A DNA stretch of 64,000 bases from a virus (Duplodnaviria; Heunggongvirae; Uroviricota; Caudoviricetes): positions 128,001 to 192,000 of IMG/VR virus record IMGVR_UViG_3300015615_000629; one strand, 5' to 3'. This document shows positions 4,084 to 46,552 of this stretch, piece by piece. Position 1 is the first letter of the stretch. Every line of letters begins with the position of its first letter. The notes below the pieces were generated by a model. It was not told the origin of the DNA. It saw only the letters and a list, made by a program, of their open reading frames with translations, and searched no databases. A program made the translations under genes and the position numbers.

Positions 4084-4551
4084 TCAGTTCCAATACAACT
4101 CAAAAGGGTCTAATCGGCACGAAAACGGACTAATAGGTAACTGGCCGCATTTTAGTTTGTTAAAACTTTTCGGATTAAGGCTATGAAACTTTGAGTTCCA
4201 AAAAAAGTTTATTGTTTCTAATGCAGTTGTCTCGTAACTGCCATCGTCTGCCATTTTGAATGGAAAACTAAATCCCAGACAAACATATCCATGATTGGAA
4301 ATTTGTGGAAGATCGATAGTTCGCCAAAACAACCAGGGTTTTACAAAAACTTTTAAAGCGAACGGATAAGGGCCGGTATCTCGTTGACCAAATTTTACCA
4401 CAAATAATGTTTTTGGCCATTTTACATAAAAAGACTCTATTTCTCTGCCAGTCCAAGCCAATACAGTCCTATATTGAGCAGGCATTACCAATGATGCAAC
4501 AATCGATCTATGTGGATAACAACCTACTTGTTTAATTTTGACAGTAGCCAT
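4084..4551 (-). CDS. prokaryotic E2-like protein (paralog 1)
   Basis: PAQYRTV, YVKWPKTLF, LPQISNHGYVCLG, FFWNSKF; same motif series as 15079-15852. Confidence 0.7.
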   Translation of the reverse strand: MATVKIKQVGCYPHRSIVASLVMPAQYRTVLAWTGREIESFYVKWPKTLFVVKFGQRDTGPYPFALKVFVKPWLFWRTIDLPQISNHGYVCLGFSFPFKMADDGSYETTALETINFFWNSKFHSLNPKSFNKLKCGQLPISPFSCRLDPFELYWN

Positions 4552-4954
4552 CAGGGTTGATTTTTGATTCTATGCATCCAAAAAAAGAATGAAGAAATAC
4601 AAAAAGTTAGGGAAACAATGCTTAAAACAACCACCACATATTCAGGTGTCGGAAATATGTTGAAAATTCTTAGACTAGCGATCACAAGCACAACAATGTT
4701 AACCAGCAGACAAAGTCCAAATAATATTTCTTCGATTTTAGGCATTGTCTTCGCAAACCTTTTTGGCTAATTTTAAGGTTGGGAGCCTATCTTTTAGAAT
4801 AAACCATGCTGGTCTGGTTCTGCCACGGTTGATAAGGGTTCTATAAAACATCTTAACCGGTTTGTTGTTCATTTTGTCAATCTCCATAATGCGGAATTGA
4901 CCATTCGTACTCTCAAGTATTCTAAAGCCATCTGGAGTAAAATTCCAGTTACTT

Positions 4955-5290
4955 TCACCTATTTTCTTTGCTCGAAAGACCAGTGCCACGGATTTCCCTT
5001 ATCTTTTCTAGAAGGTCGTCAATCTCTTGTTCAATTTCAGGTGGTGCTTTAAACCTTCCTACCAATGCTAAATCTTGGGCTCTATCATAATCGCCAGCCT
5101 CAAACGCAAGGGAGGCAGCACTTCTAAAAAGAACGGATCTAGTTGGCTGTTCTTCGGTCTGTTTGGCGGCTTCATGTTCTAATTCCGACGCCGCCATAAA
5201 CAAATTGATTTTCAAATAAAGATTAAACTTACATCTGTCTGCTATTTCAGCAACGGCCATTGCATCAAGATGAAGTTGAAGTATGTTCAT
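4955..5290 (-). CDS. helical (TPR-like) hypothetical protein
   Basis: Ala-rich helical ORF (PTRSVLFRSAASLA) in operon. Confidence 0.5.
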   Translation of the reverse strand: MNILQLHLDAMAVAEIADRCKFNLYLKINLFMAASELEHEAAKQTEEQPTRSVLFRSAASLAFEAGDYDRAQDLALVGRFKAPPEIEQEIDDLLEKIREIRGTGLSSKENR

Positions 5291-5645
5291 TTATCTTTTC
5301 CTCCCAAACTTTGTCTTCAGGAGAAACTTTGTTTGTCTCTTTCAACCAACAGCCTGAAAAACCATCGTGGCTTACCAATTTAAACCCCATTTTTGGCAAA
5401 CCATTACCTAATTGTTCGCAAGCATTTTCGATATAAATGGACAAGTTATATTTCTCAATACGCTTAATTAACTCTTTAAATAACCCTTGTCCTGTTTTTA
5501 ATGCTTCCACCGACGCTATTTGAATGCAATTAATCTTCTTTTCGCCAATGTAGATTCTACCCTTTCGGACATAGAGAGTGGAGAATCCAGGCTCATTTAA
5601 GTGGTGATTGCGAAAACCAGATTCCATGAATTCGTCGAAAGTCAT
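5265..5645 (-). CDS. GNAT-like acetyltransferase
   Basis: IASVEA..TGQGLF and KMGF motifs; start moved to ATG 5645, 6 nt below TGTGCTATAAT. Confidence 0.55.
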   Translation of the reverse strand: MTFDEFMESGFRNHHLNEPGFSTLYVRKGRIYIGEKKINCIQIASVEALKTGQGLFKELIKRIEKYNLSIYIENACEQLGNGLPKMGFKLVSHDGFSGCWLKETNKVSPEDKVWEEKINEHTSTSS

Positions 5646-5651
5646 GGACGT

Positions 5652-5662
5652 ATTATAGCACA
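5652..5662 (-). promoter_or_regulatory. extended -10 promoter TGTGCTATAAT (leaderless)
   Basis: Same motif recurs at 8469, 13343, 22598, 47683 and 54430. Confidence 0.65.
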
Positions 5663-5694
5663 GATGGCCGAAAAATCCTACTTGCCACAAGTGC

Positions 5695-6096
5695 TTAGTA
5701 CAATTGAAGATGGCCAGTTACTGGATCGATTTTACTGGCTTCGTGTGGCCCGATTGCCAAACAAGTATGGGTTGGTTCGCCAAACTCGGTCAACCCGCTA
5801 TCTTTGATAAGATGCACCTCTAAACCGGCCTTTTTGGCGTTCCGATAAACCTCAAGCAAGTCCTCCTCGGTCTGAACTTGCACACAGACTTTCTTGAAAT
5901 TACCTTCACACCATGCTATTTGTTCCGGAGTAAGGTTAATTGTGTGGGACTTGCCCTTCTTTGCTAGATTTCTAGTCAGAAAGGACATAGCCGCATGACA
6001 ACTTTGGGCAATTTCTTTACCTTTCCTCATTCCAATATTATCGCCCTTGGAATTTGTAAACTTACGTCTAACGACAATTACTTGCTTGATGTCCAT
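5695..6096 (-). CDS. pth2: peptidyl-tRNA hydrolase, Pth2 family
   Basis: KQVIVVR, KGKEIAQSCHAA, DSGLTEF, TCLAIGP, IDPVTGHL. Confidence 0.9.
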   Translation of the reverse strand: MDIKQVIVVRRKFTNSKGDNIGMRKGKEIAQSCHAAMSFLTRNLAKKGKSHTINLTPEQIAWCEGNFKKVCVQVQTEEDLLEVYRNAKKAGLEVHLIKDSGLTEFGEPTHTCLAIGPHEASKIDPVTGHLQLY

Positions 6097-6428
6097 TAGG
6101 ATTCTTCAAGGCTACGCTGGCAAGCGATACATCTTGCAGCATGGGGTAGGGCTTGCAACCGAGTAACGGAAATCGGTTTTTCACAATCTTCGCAAATGCC
6201 ATAAGTTCCATTATCAATGCGTTCTAAGGCATCAATAATCTTCTTTAATTCTTCCCGTTCTACCTCATCGAGCATGGAATCAATATCATCTTGCTCTTCC
6301 AGCGAGGCAGAATCAGCATAATCTTCACCGTCTTTATTGCGGCCTCGAAGGCTATTTGATTTATTTGCAAGAACCTGTAAAAGGTCTGATTTTCGCTCAA
6401 GGAGTGATTTTTTAATTTCTTTATGCAT
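6096..6428 (-). CDS. DksA/TraR C4 zinc-finger protein
   Basis: DYADSA coiled-coil tip; ALERIDNGTYGICEDC...RLQALPHAARCIAC. Confidence 0.9.
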   Translation of the reverse strand: MHKEIKKSLLERKSDLLQVLANKSNSLRGRNKDGEDYADSASLEEQDDIDSMLDEVEREELKKIIDALERIDNGTYGICEDCEKPISVTRLQALPHAARCIACQRSLEES

Positions 6429-8468
6429 TTTTATTTTTCTCAGGAAAAAGCCAAGATAGTAAAACTAATGAACCAGCGAAGGAAAAGCCAATTCCGGCAC
6501 CAATCCAGGGATGAGCCGGCCACATCACGGAACACATATAGGACCAACCCACTACCAGAAAAATATCCCAAAACAAAGCTTTCATTTTTTATCCTTAAAG
6601 TCAATTATATCATTTATTTTCTGGATTTCAAGTTCTTATTGTAAATTTGTAAAGGAATTTCAGGCTCTAGGACAAGGTGGCCATTATCCCAATCAAAGCC
6701 AACGCTCACATTGGTCAAATTAATGCCGTGTCGCATGCCGCCAAAGGCCCTGACTCTTAATTTGGAGTTACCTTCGGGGTCTATCTGTTTTGCTTTTTCG
6801 ATAAATTCGTTTAGTGTCATGTGTAATTTCTCCAGTTTTTACGTCGATAATAGTCGTAGAACATGGGCTAAAACAACTTAACAATATGGAAAATATGGTT
6901 TTAAGATAAATTTTCATTTGAAAACATATCCGGATGTAGTTCTAAGGCAGAAATAACTTCATTCAACGGAAGAATCTTTCTCTCAACTAACAATTCAACT
7001 ATGTTTGACATTTTCCTGCTAATGTCTTCTATCAAAGAAAGAGCTTCTGTCCCATCGTCAGAATAACCTCGATAAGCTCCCTGTAAGGTTTCATAAACAA
7101 GATGTTTAAGTTCTATTTCATTAGTCTCTAAAGACTTACAGCATAGTGGAACTTTGTAGTACGGCTCAGTCTTGAATTTGATTTTCATTTTTTCTCCAAA
7201 AGACATATACCGACATTAAAAAGAACATGATGCATATCTCGAATTGAACATATTCTTTTAATTTTTCACCGAAAACCTTAAAGCCGACTTGTAGTTGATC
7301 CGGTTGGAATATACCGACAAACAAACAAAAGGCGAAAATAAAGAGCATTAACATCGACGCCAAGGGCAACACAACTAGCAAAGTTACCGAGATATGGTGT
7401 TTTAGTAGTTCTAAAATCTTGTCTTTCATCTTGGGCCACCTTTTGGCATTGGGGGCGGAACTAAATTATATGTCACGCTCCAATAAAGTTTTGAACTCCA
7501 CACTTCCCAACGGGCGTGCTTATCATCTTCTTTCAATTTAACTACAAAGGAATAATCTGGACATTCTGCATAAGCCACAATACTTTTGTACTTTTTTTCA
7601 TATTCCGAATACTGTAATTCGTAGCACAATTTAGGGCGGGATTTAGCGAGTAACCCATCCCAATTAAGTTTAGGACTCGAAATAACAAACCATCTATCGT
7701 TTTTAAATACATATTGGTAATTTTCATCAGACGTAGCATAGGTTTCACCTTCAAAATATTTCCTATCAACCCACGTGATGGAGGTTGGGTATCGAAAATA
7801 TGCAAAGATTGCCGCCGTCGATAAAACTAAAACCATTAACAGAACTAAAAAAGATGCTTTCATCATTCAGCCCTGTTCGACAACAAGATAATAGAGCCGC
7901 CTACAGCAAAACCAAATCCTAAAATCAGCAGTATTGCAAATATAATTGTGTTATCCATAACGATGGTTGCATAGACGACAAAAAACACCGAATAACCGTA
8001 GACTGTATAACCAAATTCTCTTAATCTACGTTTTTCCTCTGTTCGGTATAAAGAATATAACCCAATAGTGGATATAAAAATACAACCTACCCCAACCAAC
8101 ACTGCGAATAGGGCCATTATAACTTCCTATTAATAACGTTTTCTAGAACTTGAGCGTGCAATTCATTCTCAACAACACGCCTTACCAGAATAATGGCATC
8201 TGATTGCCAGTTGTCTCGTTTATCAAATTCTATAAAATAAAGCCGTTTTGAATTCTCGCCAATACCAAAGCAGTATGGGCGTGAATTCACTGAAGTCGTA
8301 TGGATTGCCACCTTTTCGCGGCATTCATCCAAATAGGTAAATCTCAATACATTGCGTTGTTCAACGTATTCAGGAATATCATACGGAGAGGGCGAAATGG
8401 TAACGTTTTCGCCCTGTTTATAGGAAACGGAGACTTCAGATGCATTAACCATCGTTCGCATTCAAGCC

Positions 8469-8479
8469 ATTCTAGCACA
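8469..8479 (-). promoter_or_regulatory. extended -10 promoter TGTGCTAGAAT
   Basis: 7 nt above the ATG at 8461. Confidence 0.6.
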
Positions 8480-8489
8480 ATGTCTTGAG

Positions 8490-9032
8490 TTAGCAATTGT
8501 GGTTTTTCCAATTCTTAGGAGAGACCTTTTTAAGAGAATTGGTAGGATTTAAATATGTCTTCAAACACGCTCCGTAATCGTTTATATCTAACTTGCTTTC
8601 CTTCTTGAAGTTATTACTACGTAGATCATTATATGAATTTATAAATTCTTGTGAATAATATCCAATCCCCTCTGTTCCGTTTGGGTTCCAAAAACGTGAA
8701 TTCCAAAAGTAATCAATTATTATTTGAACATTTTCGTTTATATCCTTGTTAATTTCCCAAGATGGGAAATCTTCTCCCAAACAGACTTCTCGTTTTGCAA
8801 TTTGATTTGGTAAGGCTAATGGATATATGATTGAGTCGCATTGATGGCCTATGTATAATATATAATCCATATAAGGATAAAGAACATTTATAATAAATAT
8901 CATATCTGGCAGATATAATAAGTCTGCCGTATTATCTGTAAGTAGTATAGTCCTTCGATGAGATGGCAGTTCTACCGTAACGTATTTTGTGCGGTTCATC
9001 ATTCCTTCGCCAACAAAACAGTTGATCTTCAT
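8490..9032 (-). CDS. prokaryotic E2-like protein (paralog 2)
   Basis: PSHRRTI, LYLPDMIF, LPNQIAKREVCLG, YFWNSRF; start moved to ATG 9032 to avoid overlapping the divergent gene. Confidence 0.7.
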   Translation of the reverse strand: MKINCFVGEGMMNRTKYVTVELPSHRRTILLTDNTADLLYLPDMIFIINVLYPYMDYILYIGHQCDSIIYPLALPNQIAKREVCLGEDFPSWEINKDINENVQIIIDYFWNSRFWNPNGTEGIGYYSQEFINSYNDLRSNNFKKESKLDINDYGACLKTYLNPTNSLKKVSPKNWKNHNC

Positions 9033-9054
9033 TTTAATAACCTTAAATAAAGGT

Positions 9055-10792: not shown

Positions 10793-10793
10793 T

Positions 10794-11642: not shown

Positions 11643-12712
11643 TTATCCAATGTGGGTGTTGCGAAATCCACGAACATGCTTCAAACTTAGACGAATCAGG
11701 ATAAAGACAATCCCAATTACGGCCAAAATGTAAGTAGAAGGTTCGGGGATGAGCATTAAAGGCATTGCGGCACTTCCACTACCATAGTGGTCGGCCCAAA
11801 GGACGTAATCGAGACCATCCACGTTGCCATCGTGGTTGAAATCTCCTTTAGACCAATTTCCAGCACCGCCAGACATGCCGAATCCATCGGCCCAAGCCAC
11901 GTAATCCAAACCATCAACGACGCCGTCCAGATTGGCGTCACCCAAATGTGTATCCAAAACTTTATTCAAGAAATTATTGGCAAGCCACGGATAGCCGTTG
12001 TTGCCAGGACCGTAAAGGTGAACATAACCAGGATTTACACCATCGTCACCATACATTGTTTGCCAATTCGGCACCTGCTGGATATCGTAATTAGTGTCGA
12101 TTAAGTTAAAGCCGTACAAATCGGCTTGCTCTCGAATCCAAGGATTGTAAACGGTATCAACCAAAGTGTTAGCTTGAGCATTAATCGGATTGTTTGGATC
12201 GGCAAGGATTGGCAAAATAGTGCTTACAAAAATCTGCGGATGATTGCCATTTGGAGAAGTTGCCGTAGAAAGGTAATCGTAAACATTAGTCATTACTGAC
12301 TGGTAAGTTGTCCACATTGAGGGATTGTTTACGGATTGATAAGCATCATTGCTACCAATCATCAGGATAACCGCATCCGGATTCACCCCAGTTACACGCG
12401 GCAAATTGTAGTATGTCCAAGGCGGCCCAAAACTGTAAACCGTACCTTCGACAGCATCGAAAGCAAAATTGTGAGAAATTGGAGAAGGAACCCAATGGCC
12501 ATCGGGTGCAAACCCGCCAGAACAGACGATGTGGCACCACCGGAAGCCATCGAATAGGCATTTCCAGTAATGCCTTGGGCGTTCATCGCTAGTTGCAGTT
12601 GAATCGGCCCATAGCCAGTGCTATTGGAATCGCCAATGCCAACAATCTTGAAATTGCCAGCGAAAGCGGGCGAAACAACAAAAAGCAAAAACAGGATTGT
12701 CAACTTCTTCAT
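11643..12712 (-). pseudogene. secreted SGNH hydrolase with dockerin-like repeats and PEP-CTERM, broken by a -1 frameshift near 12512
   Basis: Frame 1 has the signal peptide and GDSNS. The -1 frame has MIGSND, GYVH, two GD(A/F)N.DG.VDGLDY repeats and IPEPST+TM. Confidence 0.75.
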
Positions 12713-12900: not shown

Positions 12901-12934
12901 AAAAAAACCGCTGGGATGTCCTCCCAGCGGTTTT
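12901..12934 (-). terminator. Rho-independent terminator after the Ubl gene
   Basis: AAAACCGCTGGGA/TCCCAGCGGTTTT inverted repeat followed by a T-run on the minus strand. Confidence 0.85.
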
Positions 12935-12959: not shown

Positions 12960-13304
12960 TTAGGCACCCTTGGTGCCGGCCGGTTTCAAGAATTCGACCT
13001 GTTCAGTGGTCGCGTCAAGCAAGTGGTCATCAGAAACAGCAACGCCCTTGAGGTAGCATTGTGCATCTGCGGCCACGTTGAGCATACCAGCGACAGCCTT
13101 ACGAACTTCGCCGACTGTCTTGCCAGCGACGGCCATTTCGGTTTCGTTGACACCGCACATGATAGGGACCGGCTTACGCTCGGAAATCGCGGTATCGAGT
13201 TTTTCAAGAACTTCGGTAGAACTTGGGTTCTTGTTTTCCAATCCGGTTTCGCACGAACCGGAAGCTACCGTATCGGCAACTTTATTTTGCTGCTTTTGAG
13301 CCAA
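12960..13304 (-). CDS. ubiquitin-like (beta-grasp) protein
   Basis: GKTVGEVR...VEFLKPAGTKGA; GTKG end as in PRTRC protein C/Prok-Ub; GGAGG SD with TTG start; follows ThiF. Confidence 0.8.
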   Translation of the reverse strand: MAQKQQNKVADTVASGSCETGLENKNPSSTEVLEKLDTAISERKPVPIMCGVNETEMAVAGKTVGEVRKAVAGMLNVAADAQCYLKGVAVSDDHLLDATTEQVEFLKPAGTKGA

Positions 13305-13342
13305 GGTTAGTTCCTCCGTAGAGTTTAGTAACTGCTACTTAC

Positions 13343-13370
13343 AATTTAGCACACTTGAAGCGAATGTAAA
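13343..13370 (-). promoter_or_regulatory. sigma70-type promoter for the Ubl gene
   Basis: TTTACA, 16-nt spacer ending TGTGC, TAAATT. Confidence 0.6.
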
Positions 13371-13375
13371 GTAAA

Positions 13376-14068
13376 TTATCCCGCACGCTTCATTGAACGG
13401 GATTTATTTTGCACGACATCGACGTAAACCTCTTCGTAATCAGGGTTTTTGTTCGTCGCTACCGCATAAAATGCGTTTAGCATGACGGCACAGATTGCGA
13501 AGTTTGTGACAACCAATTGTGGAGCGGACTTAACCATCTCCATGCACCCCAACAACTTCAATTCGTTAGGGTGCTTATCCGTTGGAGTATTAATCTCCGG
13601 ATGGACTTCATGCAAAGCACGAGTCAGATTTTTGCCGTTTTTTCGCTGGTGAATCATCACGTTGCCATCAAGCAACTCGTTCCCGCCAGAAATCAAAGTA
13701 ACATCGTTAAGTTGATTGCAATGGTGAGAAACCAGTTTTCTCGTGGCGTGATTGTCCACGCAAAGCAAAACCACATCACCATCCTGAATTAATGTTGAAA
13801 TATTATCAACATCAACATAAACAGGATGATAGGAGATTTCTAGATTTTCGAATTCCTCCTTCAACTCTTCGGCCAGAGCTTGGGCTTTATTGCCCCAACT
13901 GGTGAATCGCTGACGAGTTTTGTTCGAAAAATCGAAATCGTCGCCATCAATCAAGCCCAAAGTAGGGGCTGTAAATTGATGGTCGGCCGAACCCCAATTC
14001 AAAAATTGGCACAGCGGGTAGACCAAGTGTGATCCAATCCCACCCGTTCCAATCATTTTAACACGCAT
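13376..14068 (-). CDS. ThiF/E1-like adenylyltransferase
   Basis: GTGGIGS, IDGD, N..RQ, NKA, CVDN, SGGN; candidate thioester Cys in LGCME..APQL..TN. Confidence 0.9.
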   Translation of the reverse strand: MRVKMIGTGGIGSHLVYPLCQFLNWGSADHQFTAPTLGLIDGDDFDFSNKTRQRFTSWGNKAQALAEELKEEFENLEISYHPVYVDVDNISTLIQDGDVVLLCVDNHATRKLVSHHCNQLNDVTLISGGNELLDGNVMIHQRKNGKNLTRALHEVHPEINTPTDKHPNELKLLGCMEMVKSAPQLVVTNFAICAVMLNAFYAVATNKNPDYEEVYVDVVQNKSRSMKRAG

Positions 14069-14103
14069 TTAAAAAATCCTTTTCTAATCCTTTTCAAGGA
14101 AAA

Positions 14104-15069
14104 TTACTTAAGTGGACCCCATTGACGATCATCATCGTCATCGTCCCACTTTTTACTGCGAGAATTTTTCGCTGCGACGAACGCTCGGCTAACCCGTGGC
14201 ATCCATTCGTCTTCAATTTTGTCTTCCAAATCCGCTTGTTCGTCGGCACTTGGAGCGTCATTCACTCGGAAGTATCGACTCCGATCCCGCCAAGAAGTGG
14301 TGAGCGACCGCCAACCAGAGCGAATTCCTTGAAAGAATCCCATTCCTTCATCTTCGTCGTCGGCTTCGTCTTCAACCTCTTCTTCGTAAATTTCTTCGGC
14401 AGAACCGCCCGTATTGACGACATTCATAACCTCTTCGGGCGGCACTTGTTTTCGATTGCCGTCGATTACAATCGAAGCGGCGGCTGAAAAGTCCGCCCTA
14501 TCAACATGACCAAGGGTAATATGCAAACCATCTTGGTCATGTTCGTCGTGGATATCGACGCCTGAATGGTAGGCAGAGAAATTACAATGTGAATGGATTG
14601 TACCGATTACGATAAATCCATTTCCTTGCAATTCTCCCAATTCTTCATCCATTTTATAATCAACCGAACCACCGGAGACGCTTTGGTTTGGACACCAAAG
14701 AACGTACTCTTTCGTTCGGCGATTATAAAGAATCATGACTTCCGCTTCGGCATGAAATTTATCCCAAACCATTTGAAAAAAGGTGTGGGCCTTATTTACC
14801 AAGGCAGCCGGAAGTATAGGCAACTTGTAGTTGTACTTGTCATCTGGGGATTCTGCCAAGAAATACAAATCATTGGTCGGAACCAAAGCATCCACAACTG
14901 TGGACATTTTTCGCACCTGAGTGCCGTTCTTTGACAGAACGTAATAATTGCCCTTTGTAGGCAAATCCTTGGCGGTGACGAATTTGCATTCGACACCATC
15001 TTGGAATTCTGCGTCGTCATCAACAAGCACGTAAACCGAATGGATGATGTCGGTCATTGAATTCTCCAA
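14104..15069 (-). CDS. JAB/MPN+ metalloprotease (PRTRC protein A-like)
   Basis: EAEV...IGTIHSHCNFSAYHSGVDIHDE matches E..HxH-x7-S-x2-D; acidic C-terminal tail. Confidence 0.85.
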   Translation of the reverse strand: MENSMTDIIHSVYVLVDDDAEFQDGVECKFVTAKDLPTKGNYYVLSKNGTQVRKMSTVVDALVPTNDLYFLAESPDDKYNYKLPILPAALVNKAHTFFQMVWDKFHAEAEVMILYNRRTKEYVLWCPNQSVSGGSVDYKMDEELGELQGNGFIVIGTIHSHCNFSAYHSGVDIHDEHDQDGLHITLGHVDRADFSAAASIVIDGNRKQVPPEEVMNVVNTGGSAEEIYEEEVEDEADDEDEGMGFFQGIRSGWRSLTTSWRDRSRYFRVNDAPSADEQADLEDKIEDEWMPRVSRAFVAAKNSRSKKWDDDDDDRQWGPLK

Positions 15070-15078
15070 AAGTAACGT

Positions 15079-15852
15079 TTAGGCAAGTGGAGACACTATA
15101 GCACGATTTTGGGCAATGTAAACTTCCGTTGGCTTGAAAAAGTTCAAATGCGACTTTTGAATACCATGATGCTCAAGACGCTGATCGGGATGGTAGTAAG
15201 ACGCATATCTAGCCAAACTAGGCCCAGTTTTGGGGTAAAAGCGAGGGTCTAAAATAAAAGATGCATCTGCTCGGGTTTCTTGTTCCCATAATTTTAGACA
15301 AACACTTGTGCTCTCGCAATTATAACAGTTATTAATATTCATACCAAAATTGAACAAAGAAGTTGTGTAATCTCCTGTAAAACGACTATTCCAAAAATCT
15401 TCTAGAATATCAATTAAACAACTACGGTGGTTAATATTCTCGACCATCGTGGGACCGAAACAAATACGCCCACTCTCAAAACGTATGTTTGGCAACCAAC
15501 CAAGGGATATCGAACCCTTATCTCTTATTGATTTGTTAGAAAACCAACAAACACCAGCAGACCGATAGTAGTGGCCAGAATGCGGCATGAACGTAATGGC
15601 CGTTCGATTGAGAGTTATGCAAAAAATAACATATGGAAATGAGAGATAATAACCACCATACGCCGTGTTAATCGTCCTGCATTTTGGTTTCAATTCAAAG
15701 AAGAATAAACAACTGGACTCACTCACTGGAATAATAAATTCGTAATCTTCGACAGACAAGTCATTACAAAAAGCAGGAAATTCAAAATCCGAAATAGAAA
15801 CTTTCAACTTCGTGCAAGATTCCCGCACCTTCTTTTCAAATTCACTCGACAT
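15079..15852 (-). CDS. prokaryotic E2-like protein (operon copy, PRTRC protein B-like)
   Basis: PKCRTI, YLSFPYVIF, LPNIRFESGRICFG (cf. E2 HPN..G.ICL), FWNSRF; directly upstream of JAB-E1-Ubl. Confidence 0.8.
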   Translation of the reverse strand: MSSEFEKKVRESCTKLKVSISDFEFPAFCNDLSVEDYEFIIPVSESSCLFFFELKPKCRTINTAYGGYYLSFPYVIFCITLNRTAITFMPHSGHYYRSAGVCWFSNKSIRDKGSISLGWLPNIRFESGRICFGPTMVENINHRSCLIDILEDFWNSRFTGDYTTSLFNFGMNINNCYNCESTSVCLKLWEQETRADASFILDPRFYPKTGPSLARYASYYHPDQRLEHHGIQKSHLNFFKPTEVYIAQNRAIVSPLA

Positions 15853-16339
15853 CTATATTAAACCTTTTCCTAATCGAGTGTATTGCTCTTTGACCACGTT
15901 GCATGGCAGCAACTCGTGAGATTCCCAGCCCATCGCCTATTTCCTGCCAGGAAAGCCCATTTAGATAATGCTGAGTTAGTATTTTTCTGTTAAGAATATC
16001 AGCATCTGTGTCGTCTGGTGATTCTGTTAAGAAATAAGATAAATCTAGGAAATCTAGTCCTGTTTCACTCCAGGTTGGTTCAAAATCTAATGATTCTGTT
16101 CGTCTTAAACGACGAGATTTTCTGCCAGAAATAATCCTATTCCGCATACAGCGAAAAGCGAATTTTGAAAAAAATGGAGTTTTGGTCTCGTCAAAAGATT
16201 TAGCCGCATCCAACAACCCATCTACAGCATCAGAATATTCCGGAGTATCTTCGACTGGACCGCTAGGAACGTAAGAACGACATATCTTACGTGCAAGCCC
16301 AAGATGTTCCGCAGCGTTAATTTTCTTTAGGGAAATCAT
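15842..16339 (-). CDS. sigma70-family sigma factor
   Basis: Region 2 (GLLDAAKSFD...FSKFAFRCMRNRI) and region 4 HTH (LSWQEIGDGLGISR). Confidence 0.8.
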   Translation of the reverse strand: MISLKKINAAEHLGLARKICRSYVPSGPVEDTPEYSDAVDGLLDAAKSFDETKTPFFSKFAFRCMRNRIISGRKSRRLRRTESLDFEPTWSETGLDFLDLSYFLTESPDDTDADILNRKILTQHYLNGLSWQEIGDGLGISRVAAMQRGQRAIHSIRKRFNIDVE

Positions 16340-16844
16340 TCGGCACAACCAAAACTTCGTATACGTCCTGTCCTATGGACAACCTGTTTGTATCAGCATC
16401 CCCTTCGATTATATCGATAAGCCGAGATAAAACTTTTTCAGAAGATATTAGATCGTTGAATTCCTTGGAGATTTTGTTACGACGAGAGAAAAACATCAAA
16501 AATCCTTACCGTAAATAACGCATTCACCTTTCCACTTTTCTGCTTTATCGTCAGATAATTGCGGAATCGGCATTAAAGATTCTAAGTCAAAGAAAAAAGC
16601 CAAGGAATTGGTACATTTTTTCCAAGTTGGCGGAAACATTCTGCCACTGTTTCTGGGATGCTTGTGTAATTTAAACTTAATCCCTAACTCCGTAAGAATC
16701 TTTTCCGCTTTGACAGTCAGAGCGGCTTTGCTAGAAGGGATTTTATTGCTAATAACCAATTCGGGCGGGTCATCGTCATCGAAACAAATATACCAATCCT
16801 CCCCATAAAGAATAGGGTTTTTGTAAAATAAACCATCAGTGGCT

Positions 16845-20754: not shown

Positions 20755-21282
20755 TCATTTATTCACCCATTTTCTGGGTCTAATCTGCTGCGAATCGGGT
20801 GGAATTCTAAAAACCTCGATGCAAGCAATTAATTCCTTTACATCTTTTGTTCTTTGCCACTTTGTTACATCATAACCACCAAACGCACTACTCCAAAAGT
20901 ATGAGATGGCATTTTCTATTAATGGTTTCAAATAACGTTCATTCCGTCCGTGACGAGGATAAAATCTTGTCATGCATATATTGCCGTGCGGAATCTCGGA
21001 CGATCCATGAACCGCTTTTGAGTTGTCGCCCTTCATAAAACCAAAACTAAGGCCATGAAAATGAAATCCATCTGGATTTCGATAAGCATCTATTTTAAAA
21101 CAAGTTCTAGGAAATAGAAGGTACTTACTAAGAGTATTAGTGCCGTCATCATCGGCGAATCTTACTGTGCGATATCGACTAGGAAATGTTATAAAAACCT
21201 CTACACCAAGATCGACGTTTCGGTCGTGATAACGTCGATAGACTTCTGTGTATCTTTCAAAGATTTTCATCGTCTTGCCCAT
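20755..21282 (-). CDS. prokaryotic E2-like protein (paralog 4)
   Basis: PSRYRTV, YLLFPRTCF, HGNICM, YFWSSAF; tandem duplicate of the next gene. Confidence 0.65.
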   Translation of the reverse strand: MGKTMKIFERYTEVYRRYHDRNVDLGVEVFITFPSRYRTVRFADDDGTNTLSKYLLFPRTCFKIDAYRNPDGFHFHGLSFGFMKGDNSKAVHGSSEIPHGNICMTRFYPRHGRNERYLKPLIENAISYFWSSAFGGYDVTKWQRTKDVKELIACIEVFRIPPDSQQIRPRKWVNK

Positions 21283-35837: not shown

Positions 35838-36344
35838 TTAACCTTCCAAATTAGGCTCCACAACGCAAGTAATGTTTCTACCTTCCATTCTAGGACTAGG
35901 CTTGGACTTAATAAGGTCGGAAACCTTGTCCAAGAAACCATTTACAACAGTAAACCCAAGATGAGAATGTGATAATTGACTCTTCTTATTAAAGAAAAGC
36001 CTAATTTTCACTTTATTGCCAGACTCTAAGAACTTTCTGGCTTGGTTTATCTTGGTTTCAAGATCGTGTTCGGCAATATTAGGTTTTAAGCTAACTTCTT
36101 TGAGAACAGGAGTTTTTCTTTTGTTTTTACGATCTTTAACCTGTTGTTCATACTTGAATTTTCCATAATCCATAATACGACAAACAGGTGGCTTGCTATC
36201 TGGCGCTACTTCCACCAGATCCAATTCCTTCTCATAAGCCATTTTTCTGGCTTGATTCGTAGGAATTATACCTAAATTATTGTCGCCATCAATTAATCTA
36301 ACTGCGGGAACCCGTATCTGATCGTTGATCCTGCTTCTCATCAT
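35838..36344 (-). CDS. infC: translation initiation factor IF3
   Basis: RINDQIR, LDLVEVAP..KPPVCRIMDYGKFKYE, FLESGNKVK. Confidence 0.95.
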   Translation of the reverse strand: MMRSRINDQIRVPAVRLIDGDNNLGIIPTNQARKMAYEKELDLVEVAPDSKPPVCRIMDYGKFKYEQQVKDRKNKRKTPVLKEVSLKPNIAEHDLETKINQARKFLESGNKVKIRLFFNKKSQLSHSHLGFTVVNGFLDKVSDLIKSKPSPRMEGRNITCVVEPNLEG

Positions 36345-37966
36345 AATTTTTTCGATAATGCCTTAGTCATTCTATCTAATCCTACTGAAATATCGTCCGC
36401 ATCTAAAATCGCATTTATAAGCGTAAGTCCTTTATTGACAAGACCATACGACAATGCAGATTCAAGTTCATCTTCTGTTTCCACTTTAAATCCTTTGCCA
36501 CCAACTACTTCGACAAGTTTTTCATAGTTCCACTCAGCAACATCGTTAAAAGGTCCATCTAATAGAAACCGTTCTGTGGTGAAGCCGTGGTTGTTTAGAA
36601 CTATAACTATAGCATTTTGTTTTCTTTTGACAATAGTAGAAAGTTCATTACAAGACATTTGAAAAGCCCCATCCCCAACTAAAACAATAGGACGTACATT
36701 TGGAGCCGCTGTAGCGAAGCCAAGAGCCCCAGGAATAGCAAAGCCCATCGATGTATAGAAAGCAGGGCTTAAAAAGCCATTATTTCTCTTAATTACCAAA
36801 TCGATTGCCCCGAACAAAGAATCACCAATGTCGGCAATAATGGCAGTATTTTCGTCAAGAATAGAATTTATTTTTTCAAAAAGCCTTGCAACCTTCAATT
36901 TCTGACCTGCTAAAGCGGAAAATGCACTGACATCCATCTTGTTAAGAGCAGCAAATGGCTTTTTATCAAAATTGGATTTAAACAAAGATTTTGTAAAATC
37001 TAAAAACGTAACATTTGAGAAAGCATGGTTTTTTACTTTTAATTCTTCAACTGTAGAAATTACGGTTTGGCGTTTTTCAAATTTGACTGGCATGAATCCG
37101 AAATTCATATCAGTAATCATAACTCCCAGCATCAGCAAACAATCAGAAGATTCGACAATTTCTCTGACGGATTGTTTGCTTGCCTTGCCCGCATAAACGC
37201 CCAGGAACAAAGGATGAGATTCATCTACAACCGATTTGCTAAGTAATGTCGTGGCAATTGGAATGTTTAATTTTTCAGCAAATTTAGTTACTTCATTACC
37301 CAATCCGTAACGAGCCAACTGCACACCTGCCAAAATGACAGGATTTTTAGCAGAATTAATCCAAGAGATAGTTTCTTCAAGAGCTTCGTTTAGATTTTCT
37401 GGATCGCTAACGGGAGGTCTTGGTGTTCCTTGGCGGTAAACATCATAATCAAGTGGCTTTTCGGCCACATCACGTGGTAATTCGATATAAATTGGTTGCT
37501 TATGGTGTTTAAGTGCCTCAAAAACCCTATCGATTTCATATCCAGCCGTGGATGGATTGTCCAGAACAGTGCTAGCACATGTAATATTTTCAAATATTTG
37601 TTTTTGGCATTCAAAACTTCTAACCATATGGTGCAGCAAAACTCCATCTCCGCGTTCTTTTAACCCTGGAGAACCAGAGATTAGAACAACAGGGGAACGT
37701 TCGGCATAAGCACAAGCAATTGAATTGGCAAGTTTTAAAGCACCCACATTGTAGGTAACGCACACGCAACCAACACCCTTGACACGAGCATAAGCATCGG
37801 CAGCAAAACCAGCATGGGATTCGTCGGTTGTGTTAATTAATTCTATTTTTGGGAAATCAGACAGTTTTTTGTAAAATGAAAGAATATAATCTCCTGGCAG
37901 TCCAAACACATGTTGGATTCCAGAATTATGCAACCGTTCAATTAAAAAGTCGGCTACAGATGGCAT
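36341..37966 (-). CDS. TPP-dependent alpha-keto-acid (pyruvate/indolepyruvate) decarboxylase
   Basis: VFGLPGDY, GFAADAYAR, LHH, GDGAFQMS...LNNHGFTTER. Confidence 0.9.
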   Translation of the reverse strand: MPSVADFLIERLHNSGIQHVFGLPGDYILSFYKKLSDFPKIELINTTDESHAGFAADAYARVKGVGCVCVTYNVGALKLANSIACAYAERSPVVLISGSPGLKERGDGVLLHHMVRSFECQKQIFENITCASTVLDNPSTAGYEIDRVFEALKHHKQPIYIELPRDVAEKPLDYDVYRQGTPRPPVSDPENLNEALEETISWINSAKNPVILAGVQLARYGLGNEVTKFAEKLNIPIATTLLSKSVVDESHPLFLGVYAGKASKQSVREIVESSDCLLMLGVMITDMNFGFMPVKFEKRQTVISTVEELKVKNHAFSNVTFLDFTKSLFKSNFDKKPFAALNKMDVSAFSALAGQKLKVARLFEKINSILDENTAIIADIGDSLFGAIDLVIKRNNGFLSPAFYTSMGFAIPGALGFATAAPNVRPIVLVGDGAFQMSCNELSTIVKRKQNAIVIVLNNHGFTTERFLLDGPFNDVAEWNYEKLVEVVGGKGFKVETEDELESALSYGLVNKGLTLINAILDADDISVGLDRMTKALSKKL

Positions 37967-41541: not shown

Positions 41542-41828
41542 CAAGAAAAAGTCAATACATCTTTTCTGATTTTTCAAAATAAGTAAACTAGGGGATGTCG
41601 TAGCCTTGCTTAATATGACGTAAAAATGGATACCCTGGGCAATTATCTCCCAACGGCACATTTGCTTTTGCCGGATCGTTGCCAGCTTTTGCTTGATCTG
41701 TCTTGAATTTCTTCACTCGTCCATCGATTTTTTGTTTCAAAACCGTTTTTTTCACACAATGATGCCCTCCGTTACCATCATGCGTGCAATAAATGCATTC
41801 AGAAGCCCCAGAGCCCAACAGACAAACA

Positions 41829-42416
41829 TCATCCAGTTGTTTTTTTGTTAGCATAATACACTTCTTCTCCTTTAGATATCAAAATATCATTGTGATGGTC
41901 GATCTCGTGTTGAGAAACGATTGCCGCATAATCCGTCTGCTTTTCTTCGATTTCTACAAACTTTGGCTCGCCATCAACTACCAATTCCAATCCCCGCACA
42001 ATCACTTCGCTAGACCTGGATACCTTGAACAATCGGCAAACGCCGTTTTCATCCCGTAATGAAAGACAACCCTCCACAGTTTCAACATTTTCACCAACTT
42101 TTTCGTATTCACAGTTTACAAAAAATCTGGTTTTTTCCAAACGGGTCAAAAACAATTTATAAGGAATTCCAACCTGGACAGCTGATAATCCAATTCCCTT
42201 TTCACGAATACATAAATCTTCCAACATTAAACAAATTTTGTAGATTTCCACAACATCAAGCGGACAATTTACTGCTTTAGGGATTTTATCGACAGGTACT
42301 ATCGCCGCTCGTAGAGCATTTGTAATCTGGTCGACGAAGCCTAAAATTCCATCTTCGGCTTCGATATCAGCAGCCGCACGAAAGACATCGTTTATCTCTG
42401 TGAGGGGTTTTGACAT
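41829..42416 (-). CDS. def: peptide deformylase
   Basis: GIGLSAVQVG, EGCLS, QHEIDH. Confidence 0.92.
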   Translation of the reverse strand: MSKPLTEINDVFRAAADIEAEDGILGFVDQITNALRAAIVPVDKIPKAVNCPLDVVEIYKICLMLEDLCIREKGIGLSAVQVGIPYKLFLTRLEKTRFFVNCEYEKVGENVETVEGCLSLRDENGVCRLFKVSRSSEVIVRGLELVVDGEPKFVEIEEKQTDYAAIVSQHEIDHHNDILISKGEEVYYANKKTTG

Positions 42417-42811
42417 TAAGACAGTCGCTTTACTATTGAATCAACTCGAACCTCAAACCACGCTTTTAAGGCTTCAGGATCGCCCTTTAAATTAGATGGC
42501 AGGTGGAGAATCACAGGTATTTCCTCCCCACCATTTACCACTAAATCAAGGTGTTTGTCAACTAGTGTACGAACCAAATCAGAAATTGATTTTCCAGTTT
42601 TTTTAGATGCAGCCTTAAGATTGTCGTGAATTCCTGATTCGACATGGAACATTACGGGCACTTCTTCTCCGTCAGTTACCACCAAATCCAAATGTTCGAC
42701 TAGTGTACGAACTAAATCAGAAACCGATTTTCCAGTTTTTTTAGATGCTACCTTAAGGTTGTCGTGAAGTTCGTCACCTAAACTAACACTCATTATTTTA
42801 AGTTTTGCCAT
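42416..42811 (-). CDS. tandem ribbon-helix-helix DNA-binding protein
   Basis: Two copies of HDNLK.ASKKTGKS.SDLVRTLV..HLDLVV. Confidence 0.7.
   Translation of the reverse strand: MAKLKIMSVSLGDELHDNLKVASKKTGKSVSDLVRTLVEHLDLVVTDGEEVPVMFHVESGIHDNLKAASKKTGKSISDLVRTLVDKHLDLVVNGGEEIPVILHLPSNLKGDPEALKAWFEVRVDSIVKRLS
42536..42768. repeat. imperfect ~90-bp direct repeat inside the RHH gene
   Basis: ACTAGTGTACGAAC...GATTTTCCAGTTTTTTTAGATGC...TTGTCGTGAA occurs twice, about 138 bp apart. Confidence 0.85.
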
Positions 42812-42822
42812 ATATTTCCTTT

Positions 42823-43077
42823 TTAACCAAAATGATCTCTAAGTTTATCTCTCATTTCGCTTTTGCGACGAACTTCGGCTTCTTTTTGTTTCCGACGACG
42901 CTTTTGCGATTTACTTTCATATACTAATGATCGCTTATAGGCAGCAATAATTCCCAATTCTTTTACACGCTTGCGGAAAAGACCACGCATATCCTCGGCG
43001 GCTTTCTTTCTCTCCCCAAAGGATGCATTTGGGTCTGTAACCCTGTTTTCAACTCTTACTCTCGCTAATTTTCCCAT
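42823..43077 (-). CDS. rpsU: ribosomal protein bS21-like
   Basis: FRKRVKELGII..YKR...YESKSQKRRRKQKEA. Confidence 0.75.
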   Translation of the reverse strand: MGKLARVRVENRVTDPNASFGERKKAAEDMRGLFRKRVKELGIIAAYKRSLVYESKSQKRRRKQKEAEVRRKSEMRDKLRDHFG

Positions 43078-43079
43078 AT

Positions 43080-44204
43080 TTAACTCTTTTTTGGTATAAA
43101 TCTAATTCCCATCTTCTTAAGTTTCCTTTCTCGAACAACCGAATAAGGAACTACTTCCAAGGATTCAGAAGAATTAGGCAAATCATAATCTTGCGAAACC
43201 ATCGATTCAACTTTAGCGGACAACAAATCAATAAAGTTAGATTTCCATAGCCCACGTGCTGAATTCTCTAATAGAGTAGAATTTGAAAAAATATAATTTT
43301 TAGGCAACCCTAAACTACACAAATCGTCAATTTCATACTCTTTCTGCCCGTTGTATCTGCCCCTTTCATCAAAAACTATATAAGGAGCCCTGGCAATAAT
43401 TGCAAGACGAGATACCTGATTAAACATGTCAACCACACAGTTGCAGCCCCGCATTGTTGCCAAAACATGCGAAATATTATTTGTATTCAAATAAATGCAG
43501 GATTCGACAAATTCCTGGGATAAATCGTAACTTAAATAATTTTTATGCAATACGGGCGTTATACCGGACTTTAGAAGGCTACCCACTACCTCAATCCAGA
43601 ATTCCTTGCTGATTCTTACCGTATCAAGCTTCCCATATCTCCAAAAATAAGCAAAAATACTCGGATAGAGAAAAACTTTGGGCTTTGATGTGGAAAACTG
43701 CCTGCTAAATTCCGGCCCAAGTACCCCTAAAGTAGGGATTGCCGGAAGATAACGCTTCACATGCATAAATTTATCCCAAAATCCCTGTTGTAAGCCATTA
43801 TTGTAAAATTGCTCAAACTCCTTAACGTCTACCACATCTTCAAAAAACTGATTAATATTCCTTAAAAAAGCAACAGCATGAGCTGAGTCGTTGGAAAAAT
43901 TATCAGATTCTAGATAAAGATTCTTTAGGAGAGCACCATCCTTCGGAGACCAATATTCATCTACAAAAGGAAATAAGTCCTCGTATCCAGGCCAAGAGCA
44001 TAATATAAAATACTTCGAACCCTTAAACATCTCCCTGTATCGCTTCAAAAGAAGCATAGACATGATAGCGGAAGAACGTACATTTCCGAAAAAAGGAAAT
44101 ATACAAATATTCGACATACTCGTAGGAATGTCTGCGTTTTTAAACCTATTACGTGCAAAACCAGCCTTTTCAGCCGCTCTATTAACAATCGAAACAATAT
44201 CCAT
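43080..44204 (-). CDS. glycosyltransferase-like hypothetical protein
   Basis: Rossmann-like pattern (YEDLFPFVDEYW) loosely resembling the neighbouring gene. Confidence 0.4.
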   Translation of the reverse strand: MDIVSIVNRAAEKAGFARNRFKNADIPTSMSNICIFPFFGNVRSSAIMSMLLLKRYREMFKGSKYFILCSWPGYEDLFPFVDEYWSPKDGALLKNLYLESDNFSNDSAHAVAFLRNINQFFEDVVDVKEFEQFYNNGLQQGFWDKFMHVKRYLPAIPTLGVLGPEFSRQFSTSKPKVFLYPSIFAYFWRYGKLDTVRISKEFWIEVVGSLLKSGITPVLHKNYLSYDLSQEFVESCIYLNTNNISHVLATMRGCNCVVDMFNQVSRLAIIARAPYIVFDERGRYNGQKEYEIDDLCSLGLPKNYIFSNSTLLENSARGLWKSNFIDLLSAKVESMVSQDYDLPNSSESLEVVPYSVVRERKLKKMGIRFIPKKS

Positions 44205-45376
44205 TAATGTTCAGTCCCAATCCTAAATGAGTTCTTATTTCTCATTTTTTCAACCATTTCAGCATTCACTAACCCAATGATATCCTCGTAATTGTCATCT
44301 TCCATCTCATTTATCGCACGCTCTACCAGATTTAAAGCCGCTTCGTTGTCATTATAAACATTCTTGTAATGCGAAACTACCAACTTACTAGGCCCAAAAC
44401 TACATAAATTACGCCTAAATCCTTCCTGACCATTTCCCCATATCTGATCCGGACTCTCAAATAACAAATACGGAACCCCCATTATCGCCGCTAACCGTGT
44501 CGATGCTGTCCAAAATTGAACAGTAAACTTTAACTGACTAATTATTGCTAAGGTTAATTCAAGATCTTTAGACTCATTCATTCTGGAAAAATCTACGATA
44601 TGGTCTACCGGACAAGGCATAGTGCTTTGTTTTTCACCCAACCAAATTGGATTATAACCCATATTCTCAAGCAATTTAATTAAATTTACGTAAAACTCAG
44701 GTTGCAGATTCCTTCCATAGAGTTTCCTGCCACGAGCGAAGATTCCTACCGGATTGGTTTTTAACAAGGCATTTGCTTGGGAAATTTTAGCCTCGCTTGG
44801 GCGTGGAATTCCACGTGCAAAATTCTTCCAATGCGGGACATCGGAGAAGATAGAATGAACTAAATCTTCACTTTTACATTTAGGACAAAATTCTTCATAT
44901 TTGTTACTTCCCCAAAAGGATTTGCAGGATTTACAGGTGTTTCCAATGGCCACTTTACCTAAATTCTCCGCAGTAACTATTTTTCCTATTTCTAAAAGAC
45001 TTTTTTCTATTCTAGTAAGGTTTATTGACCTGTGGTGAAAGGCTTTAGCGTATTCACGAAGCCATTGATGTTCTTCCGGCAATTCCCAGAATTCGTCGGC
45101 TAAATGCTTATAAAGGTAACTTCTACCGTACCAGCCGACAACAATGTTATAGTAGCCTGGGAATTGTTGAAGAACTCTTGGAATGCAATAGAGACAACCC
45201 ACCATTTCGCAGCCAAATTCATTAAAAGCCGATATAAAAAGTATCTTTTTATAGTCTTTAGGACGGGGACGACCATTGAATTTATGGACACGAAAGTTAA
45301 TTTTGTCCAAAGTTTTCTCTTTGGCAATTGGTTTACAATCACCGAAGTTACGTAAAATATAGGGGAAATACCTCAT
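44204..45376 (-). CDS. GT9/heptosyltransferase-like glycosyltransferase
   Basis: RNLQPEFY..LI, PIWLGE, LELTLAIISQ, LAAIMGVP; start moved to the ATGA overlap at 45376. Confidence 0.55.
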   Translation of the reverse strand: MRYFPYILRNFGDCKPIAKEKTLDKINFRVHKFNGRPRPKDYKKILFISAFNEFGCEMVGCLYCIPRVLQQFPGYYNIVVGWYGRSYLYKHLADEFWELPEEHQWLREYAKAFHHRSINLTRIEKSLLEIGKIVTAENLGKVAIGNTCKSCKSFWGSNKYEEFCPKCKSEDLVHSIFSDVPHWKNFARGIPRPSEAKISQANALLKTNPVGIFARGRKLYGRNLQPEFYVNLIKLLENMGYNPIWLGEKQSTMPCPVDHIVDFSRMNESKDLELTLAIISQLKFTVQFWTASTRLAAIMGVPYLLFESPDQIWGNGQEGFRRNLCSFGPSKLVVSHYKNVYNDNEAALNLVERAINEMEDDNYEDIIGLVNAEMVEKMRNKNSFRIGTEH

Positions 45377-45549
45377 TGGCCTTTTATTCTCAACATTTTG
45401 GCAGGGCGTCCGCACTTGGGACACTTAAATTTGCGCGGACCCCCACACTTGGAGCAACCTTTAGGGATCTCAATAAAGTCGGTCAAATCAATAGACCGAC
45501 CTGGAGTTGTTTTAGCCCACCCGCAAGCGGAACAACGAATTATAAACAT
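45373..45549 (-). CDS. 58-aa zinc-binding protein (not in ORF track)
   Basis: MFIIRCSACGW...GCSKCGGPRKFKCPKCG; three CxxC; ATGA coupling to the next gene. Confidence 0.7.
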   Translation of the reverse strand: MFIIRCSACGWAKTTPGRSIDLTDFIEIPKGCSKCGGPRKFKCPKCGRPAKMLRIKGQ

Positions 45550-45555
45550 GCACTA

Positions 45556-46068
45556 TTAGAGTAGTGCCGGAGAAAAGATAATTTGACTGCTTTTTGGAAA
45601 TAACAAACGTTTTGGTACAGAAGGACAAGGCATGGTAAATCGCATTTCCAATCTTTGCTTCTCGAAAGCAGAATTCAAATAAGCAGCCGAGTCTCTGTTT
45701 TGAAGATAACTGCTACAAAGAGAAAAATAGGTCTGCCAGAAACAACCCGCCAAATAAACGAACGTATCCTCATCACACCTCCAATCGTCTTTTACCAATC
45801 CGGTACAAACATTAAAACCATGTCCGAAGATATTGGTAAGCCCAGAGGGATAGATTAACCCATCATCCCCATAGAGTCCGAAATAGAAATTCAAATCACG
45901 ATCAAACATGAAAAAATGCTCAGGAACATAAACTGACTTCGGGCCAGGGGTTAAGTGTTCATATTGATCGATCCAAGTGGACTTATGATGTTTGTATTTA
46001 AATAGCAATGTCCTCTTAGCAGGAGGACATACACCAATGTATCCCAAACTATTTCGGATTATTTCCAT
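45556..46068 (-). CDS. prokaryotic E2-like protein (paralog 6)
   Basis: PPAKRTL, VYVPEHFF, LTNIFGHGFNVCTG, CFWQTYF. Confidence 0.65.
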   Translation of the reverse strand: MEIIRNSLGYIGVCPPAKRTLLFKYKHHKSTWIDQYEHLTPGPKSVYVPEHFFMFDRDLNFYFGLYGDDGLIYPSGLTNIFGHGFNVCTGLVKDDWRCDEDTFVYLAGCFWQTYFSLCSSYLQNRDSAAYLNSAFEKQRLEMRFTMPCPSVPKRLLFPKSSQIIFSPALL

Positions 46069-46552
46069 TACAGAGCCTTTCGACTTCTTCGTATGTAATT
46101 TCGTCGTAATCACAAATAGGACTTCGGCAGTTATCGAAATATTTTACAATGGTTCCATCCTGCAAGCCCCACGAAAACTTAGTATAAGCCCCTGGTAGTG
46201 AGTCAATGGTAAACGCAGTAGTCCAAAATAAACTAGCAATACCATTAAATACATGTTCCGGCGTAGTTCGAGAAACGAAACGTTTTCCGAGACAGATAGT
46301 ACCGTTGAGTGACACATAATTCGGCAGAGCTGGAAGAAAATAAGAGTCGTTTTCTTTTGCTAAAGCAACCAAATAAGCATGAAAATCCGAGCCATGCCAA
46401 GATTCAGCATAAAACCCAGGAAAGAAATGCATCTCTGGGAATTGAAGGTAGTGCGTAGACGACCCATATTTAATCGATCTTTTCGATGCTTTTTGAACGA
46501 TATGAGCCATAAGAAAGTTCAAATCGCCCATAGTGGTTTTGTAAAATCTCAT
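46049..46552 (-). CDS. prokaryotic E2-like protein (paralog 7)
   Basis: ASKRSI, YLQFPEMHF, LPNYVSLNGTICLG, LFWTTAF. Confidence 0.7.
   Translation of the reverse strand: MRFYKTTMGDLNFLMAHIVQKASKRSIKYGSSTHYLQFPEMHFFPGFYAESWHGSDFHAYLVALAKENDSYFLPALPNYVSLNGTICLGKRFVSRTTPEHVFNGIASLFWTTAFTIDSLPGAYTKFSWGLQDGTIVKYFDNCRSPICDYDEITYEEVERLCNGNNPK

Follow-up and report, generated by a model that had tools for sequence, protein, structure and literature searches.

We analysed a 64,000-nucleotide stretch of viral DNA (the window), which is bases 128,001–192,000 of one 572,167-bp virus record (G000); the record has direct terminal repeats, is rated complete and is that of a huge phage. The window contains seven genes for proteins that resemble the conjugating enzymes (E2s) of ubiquitin systems, and one of them stands beside genes for a ubiquitin-like protein (Ubl), an activating enzyme (E1) and a JAB peptidase. 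We found that these seven belong to a family of 69 E2-like paralogs in the phage genome, all of which keep the candidate catalytic cysteine, and this 69-copy, fully Cys-intact E2 expansion appears to be new.

The family of E2-like paralogs

An iterated profile search of the whole genome gave the 69 members and converged with a clean gap between them and the next open reading frame (ORF; worst member E 2e-11, next 0.6). An earlier reading of the window from its letters only (the sequence-only reading) had described a seven-member panel and had asked for a hidden Markov model (HMM) scan of the whole genome and related phages. The panel is indeed diversified and expanded, but its count was understated, and the scan brought out further expansions in relatives besides the 69 copies. 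The paralogs have 132–257 aa each and together take up 35 kb, or 6.1% of the phage genome, in which the next largest paralog family has 6 members. Their core identity is 23% on average and 55% at most, and they are distributed over 27 loci with arrays of 18, 10 and 6 genes and 24 pairs of immediate neighbours. Two residues, an Arg and a Cys, are invariant (69/69). When the Arg and Cys columns of the model were randomised, the same 69 and nothing else were recovered and no Cys-less copy appeared; thus the invariance is no selection artefact, and ascertainment bias toward Cys is ruled out. We found no broken copies either. Moreover, when only the E1-linked E2s from other genomes were used for the model, 52 of the 69 were recovered at E<1e-3 and 63 at E<0.1; the top match was the operon E2 of the window (15079).

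The array of 18 paralogs (G000 544,636–554,650; L005:8137–18151; 10 kb) directly follows a glutamyl-tRNA-synthetase-like gene, and the identical junction is present in a sister-phage fragment (L211). Three tRNA-like 70-nt repeats are located within the 10-gene E2 cluster (L006:12674–13046; G000 about 295,670–296,050). Extended −10 promoters are over-represented ahead of the E2 genes (16/69 vs 40/612 within 1.5 kb); because the E2 genes are clustered and their counts are not independent, we keep this only as a hint of early expression. Spread as a cassette or mobile element was rejected, as the three arrays examined have coding repeats only and no flanking repeats or mobile-element signs.

The seven members in the window are the following:

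4084..4551, minus strand: stand-alone E2-like paralog, 155 aa (Arg28, Cys91), recognised by signature and profile
8490..9032, minus strand: stand-alone E2-like paralog, likely 180 aa (Arg27, Cys84) in a frame that stays open to 9095; Prok-E2_D at E 0.017
15079..15852, minus strand: operon E2, 257 aa (Arg59, Cys131); clusters with E1-linked E2s from other genomes
20755..21282, minus strand: stand-alone E2-like paralog, 175 aa (Arg38, Cys103), LPN lost; 49% ortholog in a sister-phage fragment
21267..21815, minus strand: stand-alone E2-like paralog, 182 aa (Arg36, Cys105); 36% identical to its tandem duplicate 20755
45556..46068, minus strand: stand-alone E2-like paralog, likely 170 aa (Arg19, Cys88); a sister-phage fragment has its ortholog (54%) in conserved order
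46049..46552, minus strand: stand-alone E2-like paralog, 167 aa (Arg25, Cys87); model pLDDT 77, E2-like fold without helix 1

All seven carry the ordered signature that the sequence-only reading had reported (R[TS]h, PxxxF, L[PT][NQ], [VI]C, FWx[ST]xF) and end at the stop codons it had assigned, and the LPN element is lost in 20755 alone among them, as it had said. The signature is beyond chance: as a regular expression it matches 7/7 and 20 other ORFs of the genome (27 in total) and 0 reversed ORFs. Leave-one-out HMMs recovered 6/7 at E 5e-12 to 6e-7, with the best reversed decoys at E 0.05–0.4, which upholds the claim that the seven are paralogs; the remaining one, 45556, was borderline in this test (E 0.3) and reached E 1.5e-21 in the full-family model and E 0.008 with the model from other genomes only. 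Pairwise similarity is weak except in the 20755/21267 pair, in agreement with the high divergence proposed, and the two tandem pairs and the Cys at the predicted E2 catalytic position in all seven were likewise borne out.

AlphaFold models were made for 15079 (pLDDT 64) and 46049. With both models, UBC, UEV and BubB chains filled nearly all top rows of the VIA fold search, the best rows (E2/UEV) having Z 5.9 (root-mean-square deviation 4.7, 144 aligned) and Z 5.6 (4.5, 128 aligned), and an Atlas search gave TM 0.66 over 140 residues to a cluster with PF14460 in 19% of its members. These modest scores weakly suggest that the paralogs share the Prok-E2_D fold of the E2/UBC superfamily. The family profile aligns LPNIxxxGxVC on HPNITETGEIC of UBE2F, Cys on Cys (E 0.73, hence used for register only), which would place the paralog Cys in the HPN-x7-C catalytic register of E2s. 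The fold search and this alignment thus support the E2-like fold with Cys in catalytic register that had been supposed. The Prok-E2_D profile (PF14460) gave at best 21.4 bits against a cut-off of 25, with weak matches to 14/69 paralogs (best E 8e-5), and it weakly matches 4/7 window E2s. Foldseek against the PDB returned no match at E<=0.001 for either model, a BFVD structure search returned unnamed phage proteins only, and PHROGs and PADLOC gave no family for the E2s. Matches to TLR1 in a PDB sequence search (E 0.013) were taken as chance motif matches.

The 68 stand-alone copies keep R, T, P, F, C, FW..F and LPN (with Asn in 75%). What they have lost, compared with operon E2s, is E53, Y74, the N.D that follows FWxSxF, and most of the W-S-P-F-W motif at the C-terminus. 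Their tails have an identity of 12% versus 25% for operon E2s, and their cores 24% versus 28%. N-terminal helix 1 is present in the operon E2 model and absent from the 46049 model, which starts with a strand; most stand-alone copies have 11–39 residues ahead of the Arg. These features fit a kept catalytic core with diversified outer surfaces, but could also reflect lost activities. In a tree of 110 columns, which has limited resolution, 15079 falls in a starred group with E1-linked E2s; just 2 label changes (against a shuffled mean of 32) suffice for the stand-alone copies, which lie apart from those of another phage (G001). Hence the stand-alone E2s of different phages appear to be separate, lineage-specific radiations. 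Sister-phage fragments contain orthologs of 20755, 46049 (39%) and 45556, and those of 46049 and 45556 keep their order and have a third E2 upstream of them. In another relative, the DHH-glycosyltransferase slot that 46049 and 45556 occupy here holds unrelated genes; the two are thus accessory genes in variable slots.

The operon and its distribution

At window 12960–15852 the Ubl, E1, JAB and Cys-bearing E2 genes are adjacent, and this arrangement is conserved in relatives. Besides the E2, the region has these features:

12901..12934, minus strand: terminator-like hairpin followed by a T run, past the Ubl gene; read from the sequence, absent from the scan output
12960..13304, minus strand: ubiquitin-like protein of 114 aa with a C-terminal KG followed by one Ala; TTG start preceded by GGAGG
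13343..13370, minus strand: sigma70-like promoter match before the Ubl gene; consensus match only
13376..14068, minus strand: minimal ThiF-type E1, 230 aa, with a single ThiF domain
14104..15069, minus strand: JAB/JAMM peptidase, HSH-x7-S-x2-D; weak PRTRC protein A match; likely ATG at 15057
15842..16348, minus strand: sigma70-family factor overlapping the E2 start

The lead assignment of the window Ubl is to the ThiS family, with rather high confidence. Its relatives conserve an xGxKG end, with anything from 0 to several residues added after it, which is the pattern that JAB processing would predict. In the E1, Cys175 is conserved in 34/35 relatives and the adenylation residues are invariant; from this conservation we infer that JAB matures the Ubl and that the E1 acts on it. 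PADLOC E1-E2 models match only the N-terminal half of the window E1, and a complex prediction of E1 with the stand-alone copy 46049 scored 0.02, which is no evidence either way. The Ubl gene appears markedly GC-richer than the 39% genome and has a promoter match, a GGAGG site and a terminator-like hairpin to itself, which suggests that it is strongly expressed and uses codons like those of the host. In related phages, too, the module is preceded by a sigma-like gene; here, its other neighbours are unrelated ORFs.

E1 homologs were found at 200 viral and 72 bacterial loci, with an E2 nearly always upstream and often within a fused protein of 850 aa, and Cys is kept in 116/116 E1-linked E2 domains. 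In a large group of related phages (L020–L097) a single E2 domain lies within a protein of 820–890 aa about 3 kb upstream of E1, and at two loci (L149, L153) the module is placed after a reverse-transcriptase-like gene. A profile search of 1.84 billion representatives gave 2,486 matches. Arg and Cys are both kept in 96/96 foreign representatives inspected and in every E2 copy of the genomes G001, G015, G023 and G054. The E2 copy number elsewhere is usually 1–2; other expansions comprise 14 E2s in G001 (527 kb), 7 in G054, 4 in G023 and 5 within 20 kb at L015. Among GenBank phages no match to the operon E2 was found, and those to JAB and E1 were distant only. Homologous Ubl-E2-JAB-E1 operons with the same KG-ended Ubl are present in genomes of Planctomycetota, Lentisphaerae, NC10 and the candidate phyla radiation (CPR). 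In three Planctomycetaceae operons (L159, L162, L164), JAB, E1 and a divergent E2 are accompanied by one to three Ubls and by another ThiF-like gene.

To follow co-occurrence with E1, we selected 24 relatives with an unrelated gene as the marker. E2s were present in 4/4 relatives with an E1 and in 0/20 without one (4.03 Mb; Fisher p 9e-5). When records were sampled by the E2 motif, ThiF was present in 26/29 of them and in 9/9 near-complete ones, and in the largest E2-positive record without a ThiF match (G072) the E2 adjoins a JAB-like gene. No large E1-free relative examined has a stand-alone E2, which favours use of the E2s with the phage's own E1 over a pure decoy function.

The phage genome has two ThiF and two JAB genes in total. 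Thus the single E1, JAB and Ubl of the sequence-only reading hold true of the window but not of the genome, where a second set occupies G000 279,882–286,565 (L014): ThiF at 279,882, JAB at 282,016, a 268-aa protein, a TROVE/vWA protein and Ubl at 286,356. The second Ubl has 69 aa and ends in Gly, and the second ThiF has a Cys. This locus holds one family E2, and a cluster of 10 E2s is 3–13 kb away. The 268-aa protein has a conserved-looking Cys motif; it gave no family or fold match, and we rejected it as a member of the E2 family. The second set matches a bacterial Phycisphaerales operon (L260, 62% GC) gene for gene, and BLAST of this operon against the phage-genome ORFs revealed no family E2 in it; hence the window operon remains the likelier partner of the E2 panel. 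This synteny and the window-operon homologs in the same phylum make Planctomycetota our best guess for the host.

Two further genes of the window stand outside the module. A gene for a secreted SGNH-hydrolase-like protein that carries dockerin-type repeats and has a PEP-CTERM-like tail (11643–12712) is apparently split over two overlapping frames, 12392–12712 and 11643–12404. An indolepyruvate-decarboxylase-like enzyme of the thiamine-pyrophosphate-dependent type (36341–37966) adjoins IF-3; it is 60–69% identical across a huge-phage clade with contigs of up to 693 kb, and is a useful clade marker.

A proposed multiplied E2 step and its alternatives

We propose that the phage runs its own ubiquitin-like conjugation cascade with the E2 step multiplied. 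JAB would remove the Ala past the terminal Gly of Ubl, the ThiF-type E1 would adenylate Ubl and then carry it on Cys175, and Ubl would then move to the Cys of an E2, either the operon copy or one of up to 68 stand-alone copies, perhaps made early in infection. Because the catalytic core is kept while the N-terminal helix and C-terminal motifs are lost and diverged, each stand-alone E2 most likely recognises a different target, to which it may ligate Ubl without an E3 ligase; the targets are presumably proteins of host defence or regulation, caught up in an arms race of the gene-for-gene kind. It seems to us somewhat probable that one E1/Ubl charges all members of the panel and that the individual E2s choose their own substrates, with no E3 involved. 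The fuller version, a proteome editor in which one E1/Ubl charges ~69 E2s and each is an E3-free ligase for a different host protein, we put forward more tentatively. From the earlier proposal that one E1/Ubl feeds the panel, the dependence on a phage E1 is retained through the co-occurrence, but not the uniqueness of that E1, as the genome has two E1/JAB/Ubl sets.

Several observations weigh against this proposal. The stand-alone copies are without residues conserved in the operon E2s (E53, Y74, N/D after FWxSxF, the W-S-P-F-W tail), and the loss of these residues and of helix 1 could mean loss of E1 binding or of aminolysis. The fold Z-scores are only 5–6, the Prok-E2_D match stays below the Pfam cut-off, and a second E1/Ubl is present in the genome. 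In addition, the co-occurrence is inflated by operon E2-E1 linkage, by fragments and by shared ancestry.

The stand-alone E2s might instead be decoys or hijackers that take Ubl from a host E1 of the 6d-like type (see below) and drain or misdirect it, with a diversity that tracks host E1/Ubl pairs. Homologous host operons with KG-ended Ubl do exist in the four groups named above, a Cys alone suffices for a Ubl sink, and part of the conserved E2 surface is lost in the stand-alone copies. These host operons are sparse, however, so that 68 decoys would be costly, and the E2 of G072 beside a JAB-like gene is no lone decoy. The 20 E1-negative relatives without a stand-alone E2 include four records of 381–511 kb, and this absence from 4.0 Mb weakens the decoy role that the sequence-only reading had offered as an alternative. 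Its further suggestion that Bil or cGAS is drained gained no support, the host homologs found being 6d-like operons in Planctomycetota, Lentisphaerae and CPR. We consider decoys unlikely.

A little less likely still is that the Cys/Arg site of the stand-alone copies serves non-protein tagging (small molecules, lipids or RNA), or a Ubl-independent thiol chemistry or covalent capture of host proteins. Operon E2s carry the same Arg and Cys, the E1 dependence points to Ubl use, and protein targets fit the surface diversification better. Nevertheless the Arg is as invariant as the Cys, and to our knowledge it has no counterpart in classical E2s; the HPN-equivalent Asn is found in just 49/69, and the E2-like Atg3 ligates to a lipid.

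The panel could, in whole or in part, serve the second, TROVE-linked E1/Ubl, or be shared by both systems, which we regard as improbable. That locus has its own Cys-bearing ThiF, JAB and Gly-ended Ubl, a family E2 inside it and the cluster of 10 nearby, and another stand-alone E2 is near a TROVE gene in L213. Its fully syntenic Phycisphaerales operon, however, shows no family E2 by BLAST, its 268-aa gene has no match to the E2 family, and the nearest operon-linked family members adjoin an E1 of the window type. Mostly redundant or neutral tandem amplification in a huge genome is the least likely of all, as the adjacent pairs, the arrays of 6, 10 and 18 and the variable slots that hold other genes in relatives would allow it, but no copy is broken or Cys-less, paralog identity tops out at 55%, paralogs persist as 39–54% orthologs in conserved order in sister-phage fragments, and the three arrays examined are free of flanking repeats and mobile-element signs.

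Bacterial Ubl conjugation is known as a defence with one E2 per operon. If the proposed multiplied E2 step is true, a phage uses Ubl chemistry offensively and at scale, and the 6d/PRTRC-like class gains a function, with substrates that would be the host proteins huge phages must disable. It would be the largest E2 repertoire in any genome known to us, an inverted form of the eukaryotic E3 pyramid, and with separate expansions E2 proteome editing would have arisen more than once among huge phages. The phage suggests multi-target tagging by multiplied E2s instead of E3 ligases, and offers a natural panel for a direct test of whether substrate choice is encoded in E2 surfaces (one E1, one Ubl and 69 E2s, with relatives that have 1, 2, 7 and 14).

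Comparison with known systems

The sequence-only reading had not recognised the arrangement as described, and in agreement with this a literature search, with subscription papers mostly outside its coverage, found no phage-borne E2 expansion. The closest operons are those of class 6d (Iyer, Burroughs and Aravind 2006, PMC1779556), which is the PRTRC cassette (Prok-E2_D PF14460; TIGR03735–03737). As in that class, Ubl, JAB, E1 and E2 are separate genes and the E2 has the Cys without the classical His; there are weak matches to TIGR03737 (4/69, best E 0.018), TIGR03735 (3e-9) and TIGR03736 (8e-12), all below the curated cut-offs. By contrast, the downstream His that is absolutely conserved in 6d, and which we take to lie at the site after FWxxxF, is not conserved in the phage E2s: a His occurs within 7 residues after FWxxxF in 18/69, and operon orthologs carry Asn there in 77%. 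Prok_Ub, PRTRC F and PRTRC ParB gave no match over the cut-off and none near the operon. From these failed marks the phage operon appears to be a divergent relative of 6d/PRTRC rather than a member, and it differs further in being on a lytic-type huge phage with 69 E2s instead of one. No experimental test of the 6d/PRTRC class was found in the literature.

Bil (BilABCD) is a bacterial anti-phage Ubl conjugation system, for which target recognition by the E2 itself (BilB), with no E3, has been proposed (bioRxiv 10.1101/2023.09.26.559546). It shares with the window a Ubl-E2-JAB-E1 set without E3, and a single Ala caps the Ubl Gly both in BilA and here. However, Bil is a bacterial defence with one CEHH-family E2 and an IAD-AAD-CYS E1, whereas the present system is on the phage side, with a 230-aa single-domain E1, a different E2 signature and no PADLOC match for the E2s. 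Bub (6E) forms Tyr and Ser oxyesters through an E1 Tyr and an E2 Ser as nucleophiles (bioRxiv 10.1101/2024.11.21.623953). It is likewise a diverged bacterial E1/E2/Ubl system, and BubB is among the fold matches (Z 4.5–5.0), but phage E1 and E2 both keep Cys. Unlike type II CBASS Cap2/E2, the phage E1 and E2 are separate genes with no CD-NTase neighbour. The phage system is thus neither Bil, Bub nor CBASS Cap2.

In scale, the nearest precedent is Bacillus phage G with about 35 zinc-ribbon genes, a lineage-specific expansion in a jumbo phage (PMC7824862); a term search of this review found no mention of JAB and no phage Ubl cascade. Both are small-protein families at dozens of copies in a giant genome; here, in contrast, the copy number is about double, and the amplified gene encodes a putative enzyme of a conjugation cascade. 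The eukaryotic E1-E2-E3 pyramid is similar in that few E1s feed many E2s, but eukaryotes mainly diversify E3s, whereas E2 is apparently the diversified layer in the phage. Humans have about 35–40 E2s. The likeness to the eukaryotic pyramid is convergent, as the phage proteins belong to a different E2 family.

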